In this document: one piece after another, positions 38,702 through 40,956 of the stretch
Position numbering within the stretch: position 1 is the first letter of the stretch
Layout of the letters: each line of letters starts with the position of its first letter
Source: Heliobacteriaceae bacterium
Lineage (GTDB): Bacteria > Bacillota > Desulfitobacteriia > Heliobacteriales > Heliobacteriaceae
Reading direction: 5' to 3'
Assembly (NCBI GenBank): GCA_028707535.1
Contig: JAQWAU010000001.1
Span: forward strand, 68,514-132,513
DNA length: 64,000 nt
Notes under the pieces: model-generated
Database searches by the model: none
What the model was told of the DNA's origin: nothing
The model's input: only the letters and a program-made list of their open reading frames with translations
Position numbers and translations under genes: made by a program

Positions 38702-39388
38702 CTACTGACTTCCTTTAGCGACCCTCACTATTGCGTGCCGGATTACCTTGTCTTTTAAAAGATATCCTTTTTTTATCTCGGTCATCACAGTATCATCGGC
38801 AAACTCTGCTGTCGCTTCTCCATACGTAACGGCATCATGCAAGTTAGGGTCAAACTCCTGCCCCACGGAAACCATTGGTTGCAGCCCTTCCTGAGCCAAC
38901 ACCGCTAATAATTGGCGGTAAATCATTTCCACCCCGTCGTATAAACCGGCAATACCCTCGGTTTTCTCCACCGCCAATGCCCGTTCGAAGTTGTCCAGCA
39001 CGGGTAGCAAATTGCTAATTACACCTTCGGCAGCAAACCTCGCCAGTTCTTCTTTTTCCTGGCGGGTACGACGCTTGTAGTTGTCAAAATCCGCCTGTAA
39101 CCGGGCATACCGGTTTTCAAACGCCGCCAGTTCTTTTTTTGTTTCCTCTAAGGTTTCCCTGTCTTTGGCCACTTCTTCTAAAAACATCGCCAATTGCCGG
39201 GCCGCCGCCTGTTGTTCTTCCGGAGATATTCCTCCCATCTCCTCGCCCGGTTTGGCCGCCTCACCTTGAGATGGTTTCTCGACCGGTTGGTTCGCGGTTT
39301 CTTCATTTACTTGGGTTTCTTCCCGAGCCTGAGCAGCCGGTTCCAAATCCTCGGCAACCAATCGTTGCTTATCCCGCGGGTTTACCAA
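38702..39388 (-). CDS. grpE: nucleotide exchange factor GrpE
   Basis: The coiled-coil N-terminal region and the GrpE C-terminal block ...FDPNLHDAV...GYLLKDKVIRHAIV are present. The TTG start at 39388 lies behind GGGGAGGA and overlaps the chaperonin stop. Confidence 0.9.
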   Translation of the reverse strand: MVNPRDKQRLVAEDLEPAAQAREETQVNEETANQPVEKPSQGEAAKPGEEMGGISPEEQQAAARQLAMFLEEVAKDRETLEETKKELAAFENRYARLQADFDNYKRRTRQEKEELARFAAEGVISNLLPVLDNFERALAVEKTEGIAGLYDGVEMIYRQLLAVLAQEGLQPMVSVGQEFDPNLHDAVTYGEATAEFADDTVMTEIKKGYLLKDKVIRHAIVRVAKGSQ

Positions 39389-40956
39389 TTTTCCTCCCCA
39401 CTTTCAGTTTTTTGTTGATTGTGGTGTTCTTCGCGCTTTTTAATAATGGTATCGATCCGGAGAATCGCCTCAGCAACTTCTCCCGCCGCTTTTAACGCAT
39501 AAACCTTGACTAATACCGGATCAACAATCCCTCTTTCCCCCATATCGGCAACTGTGCCGGTATCACAGTCAATACCTACGGAATCACTGTTTTGTTCCAT
39601 CTGGGCAGCTACTACGTCCCCGAGTTTTTCCAGCGGATTAAAACCGGCGTTCGCCACAATCTGCGAAAACGGCCGTTTCAAAGCGGCTACCACACAGTCT
39701 AATCCGTAAGCCGACATCCCCCGGATTTCCTTTCGTAGTTCCTCGACCTCTCTAGCTACCGCCAATTCAATTGCCCCACCGCCCGGCACTAAGCCTCCTT
39801 TGATCGCCGCCTGTACTGCCGCCGCAGCATCCTTAGCAATCCGTTCCCTTTCGCCGACCACTTCTTCCGTAGCGGCGCCGACCAACACTGTGGCCACAGG
39901 CTTCCCGAGACCATTTAATACCCGGACATGTTCCAGCTTTTCATCAACAACGACCTTACCCGCTTTTCCCAAATAACGGACCAGGTCGGCAGGGTCGCGT
40001 TTCAAGCCGGTACGTTTCATTGCCCTGGCCCCCGTATGTTCAGTGGCTTTTTTCAACTCCCGGTTGGCCACCCGCTGAACCACTAAAATTCCCGCATCGG
40101 TTAACATTTCTTCTGCCAGGTCATCAACACCCCGATCGACCAAAACCAACTTTACCCCCAGGTCAGCGATCTTTCGGACATTTTCCACAAACTCTTGCTG
40201 CTTTTGGCGGTACCAGGTAAACCCCGCCTCAGTACCGAGCGCTTCATCATCCAATGTTTCCGGTTCTAAAGCATCATCCACAACCAATACCAAAGCATCG
40301 ACAAGTTCCTTCGGCATGGCTTCATTAACCGGTTTTTTGTTTATAATCACCCCGGAAAAAACTTGGTTTTCCGCCCCGTCTTGGGCACGGATGGCGTCAG
40401 AAAGTTTATAACCGGCTTCTTTTAGTTTCGCTTCCCCCGTTAAGCGGGCTGCTGCCACAACCAACTCCGCGATGTCGCCATGTTCCCGTCCGGCAACAAG
40501 GGCAACCTTTTCCAGTACAGGATCCGCAATCCCCTTTACCAGTCGGGCGTGTTCCTGAAAGACCGCCACGGCATTTTTGATCCCGGCTTTTAGGCCCTCA
40601 ATCACCCGAGATACCGGTACTCCTTTAGCAACATGGTTTACTCCTTCGGCAACAAGACTACCGGCCAATACCGTCGCCGTAGTGGTGCCGTCACCAATCT
40701 CTGCTTGCTGTGCTTTGGCGGTTTTAATCAACATCCGGGCCGCAGGATGGTTTACTTCCATCAACTGTAAAATTGTTACCCCGTCATTCGTAATCACTAC
40801 ATCGCCGAATTTATCCACCAGCATGGTGTCTAACCCTTTCGGCCCCAGGGTTCCCTCCACCGCGGAAGCAATCGCCCGGATCGCATTGGCATTGGTCATT
40901 AGTGCTGCCAGGCGTTCATCTACTTCGGCATTATTACTTACTTGTTTAACACTCAA
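39382..40956 (-). CDS. thermosome/CCT-type (group II-like, 'archaeal-like') chaperonin subunit
   Basis: [52 protein letters not shown] and VPGGGAIE blocks match Cpn60/TCP-1 group II rather than GroEL. 524 aa; TTG start behind TAGGAGGA. Confidence 0.85.
   Translation of the reverse strand: [524 protein letters not shown]

Follow-up and report, generated by a model that had tools for sequence, protein, structure and literature searches.

A group III chaperonin gene in the CIRCE/HrcA-type dnaK operon of a Heliobacteriaceae bacterium

Group III chaperonins form a monophyletic clade, and one exception apart they are encoded in the dnaK operon (An et al. 2017, PMC5635000; PMC5220055). Their prototype is Ch-CPN of Carboxydothermus hydrogenoformans (CHY_0807 / Q3AF10; PDB codes 5X9U and 5X9V), whose ATPase and foldase activities have been demonstrated (PMC5635000, PMC12696368). 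The structure of a group III member was solved in 2017 (PMC5635000), and an ancestral reconstruction was published in 2025 (PMC12696368). As described by An et al. (PMC5635000), the group III lid (residues 223–263 in Ch-CPN) carries a deletion compared with group II, and Leu237, Phe243, Tyr246, and Phe253 are strictly conserved. The nucleotide-sensing loop is absent, the α6–α7 loop being six residues shorter, and Arg155 stands in place of the Lys of group II, while the catalytic Asp373 (Ch-CPN numbering) is present in what is a non-cooperative 16-mer. Here, we compare with this system a chaperonin gene, referred to as cpn, in a 64,000-nucleotide stretch of DNA from a Heliobacteriaceae bacterium (contig JAQWAU010000001.1 of assembly GCA_028707535.1, positions 68,514 to 132,513). 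The whole 64-kb stretch, which has a GC content of 51%, is called the window, and all coordinates refer to it.

Both the class and its placement in the dnaK operon were reportedly described by Techtmann and Robb in 2010. A group III chaperonin in a dnaK operon is already known, and the gene in the window is an ordinary new copy. An earlier interpretation of the window, made from the sequence alone and here called the sequence-only reading, had considered the class to be rare, which is overstated; 195 members were catalogued in 2017 (PMC5635000), and at least 93 species genomes were matched in our comparison. The alignment of group III proteins by An et al. 2017 (Suppl. Fig. 2) already contains a heliobacterial member, H. 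modesticaldum B0TAD5. As for function in the cell, a hand-off from DnaK to the chaperonin has been proposed in the literature, as speculation only (PMC5635000, PMC5220055). The regulatory counterpart is the HrcA/CIRCE/GroE titration model, in which GroE maintains HrcA in Bacillus subtilis (PMC5727486). No data on the heat-shock expression of group III genes from heliobacteria or Desulfotomaculia were found in the literature.

Placement of the chaperonin among groups I, II and III

The cpn gene is located at 39382..40956 on the minus strand and encodes 524 amino acids from a TTG start codon. By its sequence, the product belongs to the group III chaperonins and is neither a GroEL nor a canonical thermosome. 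The Pfam family Cpn60_TCP1 (PF00118) matches residues 29–508 with 363 bits, at profile positions 1–489 of 490. In a sequence search of the PDB, the best match was 9RWQ (ACIII) with 672 bits, and the best natural protein was 5X9U (Ch-CPN) with 473 bits (E = 8e-141); archaeal thermosomes scored about 226 bits and CCT subunits about 180 bits. Entry 9RWQ carries the PDB molecule name “Ancestral Group II Chaperonin (ACII)”, but its sequence clusters in group III. It corresponds to ACIII, the ancestor of group III (PMC12696368).

The window protein was aligned with 80 orthologues from the genome loci described below and with Ch-CPN, ACIII, ACII, two thermosomes, and Escherichia coli GroEL, and a neighbour-joining tree was calculated from 507 trimmed columns with 100 bootstraps and rooted on GroEL. 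The group III clade, consisting of 25 tips that include the window protein, Ch-CPN, and ACIII, received 100% bootstrap support, as did the group II clade and the grouping of the window protein with four heliobacterial sequences. The sequence identities follow the same order, with 78–80% to the heliobacterial proteins, 64% to ACIII, 47% to Ch-CPN, 30–32% to the thermosomes, and 25% to E. coli GroEL. The sequence-only reading had mentioned reports of archaeal-like chaperonins, sometimes called group III, in exactly this operon position in Carboxydothermus hydrogenoformans and a few other Clostridia, and the membership in this group is borne out by the match to 5X9U, by the bootstrap support, and by the presence of all the sequence hallmarks.

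These hallmarks can be traced residue by residue. The segment that would hold the nucleotide-sensing loop comprises 18 residues in the window protein, a length found in every one of the 82 group III sequences; in group II (ACII, 3J1E, and 1A6D) it comprises 24. Arg157 aligns with Ch-CPN Arg155, where group II has Lys, and is invariant in group III (82/82). The built-in lid, the length of which was measured by alignment as the sequence-only reading had suggested, has 41 residues, compared with 45 in group II. At the lid tip, Leu240, Phe246, Tyr249, and Phe256 are conserved and align with Ch-CPN Leu237, Phe243, Tyr246, and Phe253. Asp376 aligns with the catalytic Asp373 in the intermediate domain of Ch-CPN and is invariant. 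A single-sequence AlphaFold2 model (mean pLDDT 41.5, pTM 0.26) is too poor to judge the conformation of the two-helix lid, but because the protein shares 47% identity with a crystal structure (5X9U), the fold can be regarded as settled.

Compared with Ch-CPN, the window protein thus belongs to the same clade and has in common with it the loop deletion with Arg, the 41-residue lid, the L/F/Y/F tip, the catalytic Asp, and the location in a dnaK operon. The two differ in that identity is limited to 47%, that the window locus adds a 20-bp hairpin, and that the window copy is known from sequence. Their hosts are also different, a mesophile-like, heliobacteria-related metagenome-assembled genome (MAG) in the case of the window and a thermophilic carboxydotroph for Ch-CPN. 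The archaeal thermosomes (Thermoplasma acidophilum, 1A6D; Thermococcus KS-1, 1Q3R; Acidianus, 3J1E) share with the window protein the Cpn60/TCP-1 fold family, the helical-protrusion lid, the independence of GroES, and the equatorial ATP-site motifs. Unlike the window protein, they have the 6-residue nucleotide-sensing loop with its conserved Lys, and a lid that is four residues longer. Group II genes are not known to lie in dnaK operons or to be under CIRCE/HrcA control.

Two other assignments need to be considered. The gene could be a canonical archaeal group II thermosome that was recently acquired by horizontal transfer, and the best NCBIfam models are indeed those for thermosomes, i.e., thermosome beta and thermosome_arch at about 295 bits, with the top models spanning 289–296 bits. 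Yet the cutoffs of these models (400, 450, and 671 bits) are not reached, and neither are those of the CCT subunit models (140–210 bits compared with 456–800). The identity to thermosomes is well below that to Ch-CPN and ACIII, the nucleotide-sensing loop and its Lys are absent, the lid is four residues shorter, the group III clade is fully supported, and 80 Bacillota species have kept the same locus by vertical descent. Transfer of a thermosome gene is very unlikely and, on these comparisons, effectively refuted. The original assignment to the thermosome/CCT type holds as far as the thermosome-like side of the superfamily is concerned, but the protein belongs to group III and not to group II proper. 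A divergent GroEL (group I) paralogue has next to no probability and is refuted by the profile, motif, and tree comparisons: the GroEL models do match at 148–179 bits, in two partial stretches, but these scores are far under the cutoffs of 352–582 bits, the protein shares 25% identity with E. coli GroEL, and the latter is a distant outgroup in the tree. Furthermore, no GroEL or GroES was found in the 64-kb window, and no groES adjoins cpn. Profile scoring and tree agree with the sequence-only reading in keeping the protein out of the GroEL clade.

The three blocks that had been taken as signatures of group II chaperonins are all present (residues 36–76, 88–102, and 390–397), but they differ in what they can distinguish. 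The 41-residue block 36–76 is identical to Ch-CPN at 31 positions, to group II at 25–26, and to GroEL at 17, GroEL also having a four-residue insertion, and block 390–397, VPGGGAIE (in general form VPGGGAxE), is closer to group II; these two blocks, being nearer to group II than to GroEL, would speak for a thermosome. The 15-residue block 88–102 is common to GroEL as well, which is the one block that a GroEL paralogue could claim. It is identical to E. coli GroEL at 11 of 15 positions and likewise to the T. acidophilum thermosome, and is hence characteristic of the superfamily as a whole and not of group II in particular.

Operon, operator and the hrcA–cpn spacer

Gene order along the minus strand of the window is hrcA–cpn–grpE–dnaK–(J-fragment)–dnaJ–prmA–rsmE–mtaB, and in this predicted operon cpn is the second gene. 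The hrcA gene (41083..42117, minus strand) is matched by TIGR00331 with 341 bits, compared with a cutoff of 197, and by Pfam HrcA. Its longest open reading frame (ORF) begins at GTG 42117, which is directly abutted by a Shine–Dalgarno-like GAAGGGG; ATG 42108 (341 amino acids, as in the public gene call) is better spaced and is the probable start. On the other side of cpn lie grpE (38702..39388, minus strand; TTG start, identified by Pfam and NCBIfam, with a 228-residue public gene call), dnaK (36786..38645, minus strand; Pfam HSP70, 826 bits, probable start at 38627 giving 613 residues), and a full-length dnaJ (35307..36446, minus strand) with the J, zinc-finger, and C-terminal domains recognized by Pfam.

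The position of the 524-residue ORF between hrcA and grpE, as well as its TTG start behind a Shine–Dalgarno sequence, was correctly recognized in the sequence-only reading. The Shine–Dalgarno sequence TAGGAGGA is located at 40970–40963, with GGAGG 7 nucleotides (nt) before the TTG, and the TTG and first codons are invariant in the five aligned sequences of the heliobacterial clade (5/5). The overlap of the cpn stop with the grpE start was also confirmed: the TAA at 39384–39382 and the grpE TTG at 39388–39386 fall within the 7-nt string TTGGTAA (39388–39382), and an identical geometry is found in the four heliobacterial loci L001–L004, which suggests that translation of grpE may be coupled to that of cpn. 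An identical protein is present in two independent assemblies (the NCBI MAG GCA_028684475.1 and the Logan assembly of SRR22315502), and the public gene calls on both match the cpn boundaries. The ORF is intact, and every ATP-site and catalytic residue is conserved in the alignment. With a dN/dS of about 0.04–0.05 (about 0.05 for L001 versus L002), cpn is by this estimate under strong purifying selection; against the heliobacteria, dN is 0.14–0.16 and synonymous sites are saturated.

Control of the operon can be expected to start from a single site upstream of hrcA. A predicted sigma-A-type promoter, TTGACA-17-TATTTT with a TG extension and 10 of 12 consensus matches, is located at 42170..42198 on the minus strand, and 15 nt downstream of its –10 hexamer is a CIRCE operator (42128..42154), the perfect inverted repeat TTAGCACTC-N9-GAGTGCTAA with 0 mismatches, about 10–20 nt upstream of the hrcA start. 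Allowing up to 3 mismatches did not yield a second CIRCE anywhere in the 64-kb window (0.01 expected by chance). A scan of the cpn strand revealed no second promoter-like site upstream of hrcA or between TTGACA-17-TATTTT and cpn. The claim that this promoter and the perfect CIRCE are the only recognizable control sites is consistent with these scans.

The arrangement is shared by a large number of genomes. In a scan of one genome per species, at least 93 relatives were confirmed, and the best 80 loci were compared. The matches listed include Heliobacteriaceae, Pelotomaculum, Desulfotomaculaceae, Desulfofundulus, Thermincola, Desulforudis, Desulfitobacteriaceae, and many Bacillota MAGs, and the closest relatives among them are heliobacteria (about 79% identity). 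Essentially all of the best 80 of the at least 93 loci have the order lepA–hemW–hrcA–cpn–grpE–dnaK–dnaJ–prmA, so that across these roughly 80 species the CIRCE–hrcA–cpn–grpE–dnaK–dnaJ arrangement is almost invariant. CIRCE is present upstream of hrcA in all 76 loci that cover the region, perfect in 74 and with one mismatch in 2, at a distance of 10–35 nt from the hrcA match in almost all cases; none of the related loci carries one in the hrcA–cpn spacer. In most lineages (about 70 loci) hrcA and cpn are 0–40 nt apart, and because the two genes are nearly contiguous in more than 70 loci, co-transcription can be regarded as the ancestral state. The sole exception in gene order is L072 (4751–9048) from a Bacillota MAG, with spoIIP–hrcA–cpn–(112-residue ORF without a Pfam hit)–dnaJ–prmA and a CIRCE with one mismatch. 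Its 13.5-kb locus lacks grpE and dnaK while retaining hrcA–cpn, which indicates that the hrcA–cpn link is more conserved than that between cpn and dnaK.

Two irregularities among the related loci proved to be only apparent. An in-frame fusion of cpn and grpE in L066 is interrupted by a TAA at about 7558–7560 in the sequence, and a break of about 430 nt in cpn of L077 consists of 427 consecutive Ns and is neither an intein nor an insertion. A further locus, L044 (JAGUVT010000020.1), comes from a MAG named “Deltaproteobacteria bacterium” and shows the Bacillota-type order hemW–hrcA–cpn–grpE–dnaK with 70% identity to the window chaperonin; mis-binning of the contig or mislabelling of the MAG is the probable reason.

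The four heliobacterial loci (Heliobacterium chlorum, H. mobile, Heliophilum fasciatum, and Heliorestis acidaminivorans), whose chaperonins form the sister clade of the window protein, agree with the window in flanking gene order, TTG start, and cpn/grpE overlap. They differ from it in the hrcA–cpn spacer (126 nt in the window, compared with 61–93 nt), in its hairpin (20 bp compared with 9–13 bp), and in an extra J-domain-only ORF found in the window alone. A further counterpart is the B. subtilis operon hrcA–grpE–dnaK–dnaJ–yqeT(prmA)–yqeU(rsmE)–yqeV(mtaB), which has the same gene order and the same operator and promoter logic. Reportedly, this operon is heptacistronic (Homuth et al. 1997 and 1999). 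In the window there are two additions, cpn between hrcA and grpE and a J-domain fragment that separates dnaK from dnaJ.

The 126-nt spacer between hrcA and cpn is longer than in most lineages. At 41003..41046 on the minus strand, it is predicted to form a hairpin with a perfect 20-bp stem and a GGGG loop, and the 141-nt fold of the spacer region has an energy of –53.5 kcal/mol (z = –4.06), which 0 of 200 shuffled sequences equalled. The hairpin has no U-tract and was not called by the terminator scan; no repeat copy occurs elsewhere in the window, and no Rfam family matches it at threshold. Matches to Rfam miRNA families remain below threshold (29 compared with 55 bits, and 26 compared with 62) and merely reflect the perfect hairpin. 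A homologous hairpin (TAGGGrCTTTTT...AAAAGTCCCTA, then CCTGCC) exists in three of the four heliobacterial loci, those of Heliobacterium chlorum, H. mobile, and Heliorestis acidaminivorans, where the only stem difference is a G–U pair in place of A–U in the window; the Heliophilum spacer has another, short GC hairpin instead. More than 70 other group III loci, with spacers of 0–40 nt, do not have it. The 50 nt 3′ of the hairpin are poorly conserved except for CCTGCC and the Shine–Dalgarno/start region. In this lineage, the hairpin may serve in mRNA processing or stability or act as a weak attenuator, and would in this way uncouple HrcA from chaperone dosage. In B. subtilis, the dnaK operon mRNA is reportedly processed just downstream of hrcA (Homuth et al. 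1999). The sequence-only reading, which did not include the hairpin, had described the gene as tightly wired to the operon promoter; this is correct in that cpn belongs to a CIRCE/HrcA dnaK operon, but with a strong hairpin in the spacer the wiring appears less simple than in most lineages.

Proposed mechanism and alternative explanations

Based on the similarity to Ch-CPN and to the regulation known from B. subtilis, a working scheme can be proposed. At normal temperature, HrcA would bind CIRCE and repress the single sigma-A promoter. Once the chaperonin on which HrcA activity depends is titrated away by unfolded proteins, repression would be lifted, and one polycistronic mRNA would supply HrcA, the chaperonin, GrpE, DnaK, and DnaJ together, with translation of grpE possibly coupled to cpn through the TTGGTAA overlap. 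The hairpin of the window lineage and the heliobacteria would probably set the ratio of repressor to chaperone post-transcriptionally. Like Ch-CPN (PMC5635000), the window protein is expected to assemble as an 8+8 double ring that works independently of GroES. Its two-helix built-in lid would shut on ATP binding, without a nucleotide-sensing loop and with little cooperativity (Hill coefficient of about 1), and the hydrophobic lid tip formed by Leu240, Phe246, Tyr249, and Phe256 may interact with substrate or with a partner protein, for instance DnaK. Heat induction of the window chaperonin and its cooperation with DnaK are steps that we infer by analogy. We estimate a probability of roughly 0.93 that cpn encodes a group III chaperonin, stands second in a class I heat-shock operon of the CIRCE/HrcA type, and works in this manner.

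The identity of the protein is not contradicted by any observation, but a few points call for caution in this interpretation. No dedicated group III model is found among the NCBIfam hits, and the window protein falls below the NCBIfam thermosome cutoffs, so its placement is based on phylogeny, PDB bit scores, and sequence motifs. The neighbour-joining tree samples the other groups sparsely, with three group II sequences and a single group I sequence. Co-occurrence with a canonical GroEL/GroES in the same genome is among the features of group III, and within the 64-kb window neither is found. Finally, the hairpin could lower read-through, and plain co-expression of hrcA and cpn is for that reason not guaranteed.

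The last point leads to the alternative that the hairpin terminates most hrcA transcripts, and that cpn–grpE–dnaK–dnaJ is insulated and driven by an unrecognized promoter or an alternative sigma factor. The 126-nt spacer, long compared with 0–40 nt in most lineages, and the very stable hairpin, conserved in heliobacteria, are compatible with such insulation. However, a hairpin that lacks a U-tract and is not called as a terminator is a poor candidate for this role, and between the hairpin and cpn there is neither a sigma-70-like promoter nor a second CIRCE. The low conservation 3′ of the hairpin, CCTGCC and the Shine–Dalgarno/start region apart, and the near contiguity of hrcA and cpn in more than 70 related loci also disagree with an insulated unit, which we regard as rather unlikely. 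It is highly improbable that cpn is a decaying or non-functional relic, kept only by its operon position. Nothing specific points in that direction apart from the TTG start, which is itself conserved together with the Shine–Dalgarno sequence, and the intact 524-residue ORF, the conserved ATP-site and catalytic residues, and the dN/dS of about 0.05 argue against decay, as does the activity of the orthologue Ch-CPN as ATPase and foldase (PMC5635000, PMC12696368).

Within the preferred interpretation of a group III chaperonin acting in the HrcA-controlled operon, a more far-reaching role may be considered. In these Bacillota, the group III chaperonin could be what keeps HrcA active, instead of or besides GroEL. 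This is hinted at by the near-invariant adjacency of hrcA and cpn (0–40 nt in about 70 loci), which is kept even in L072, but we consider it unlikely. If it were true, a single hrcA–cpn mRNA would encode both the repressor and the machine that folds it, together a self-contained sensor–effector module, and the relative amounts of HrcA and chaperonin would be adjusted post-transcriptionally by the hairpin specific to heliobacteria. The conserved hrcA–cpn junction and the heliobacterial hairpin offer starting points for studies of the role of the chaperonin beside DnaK and HrcA.

Distal genes and a J-domain-only reading frame

A small J-domain-only ORF of 97–111 residues, likewise absent from the sequence-only reading, is situated between dnaK and dnaJ (36476..36811, minus strand). 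Pfam DnaJ matches it with 62.5 bits at profile positions 11–63; helix I is missing, the HPD motif is kept, and identity to residues 16–68 of DnaJ is 64%. It is called as a 97-residue gene in a public assembly and is missing in all 80 related loci. Directly after the dnaK stop is a GC-rich hairpin, GGGGGGC-TTGT-GCCCCCT (36759–36776, minus strand), and TTG 36769 in its loop is the likely start of the ORF. This hairpin could attenuate dnaJ and the J-domain fragment relative to dnaK. The ORF itself could represent a partial duplication of the 5′ end of dnaJ, or a small J-protein.

As for the genes further downstream, prmA (34344-35276; TIGR00406), rsmE (33569-34315; NF008692), and mtaB (32220-33578; TIGR01579) are all on the minus strand and all matched above cutoff. 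No terminator-like site was found between genes on the operon strand from dnaJ to the end of mtaB, and we infer that the three are co-transcribed as distal operon genes. The window locus is flanked by lepA and hemW upstream of hrcA, and by prmA, rsmE, mtaB, and a HIT-family gene downstream. The latter gene (31875-32219, minus strand) lies downstream of mtaB, and murJ is found upstream of lepA. The sporulation gene yqfD is located at 29742-31007 on the minus strand, and the DNA accordingly comes from an endospore-forming member of the Bacillota related to heliobacteria. The rpsU gene for S21 (31541-31717, minus strand), likewise downstream of mtaB, has its own promoter, TTGACG-17-TATAAT, at 31847-31819.

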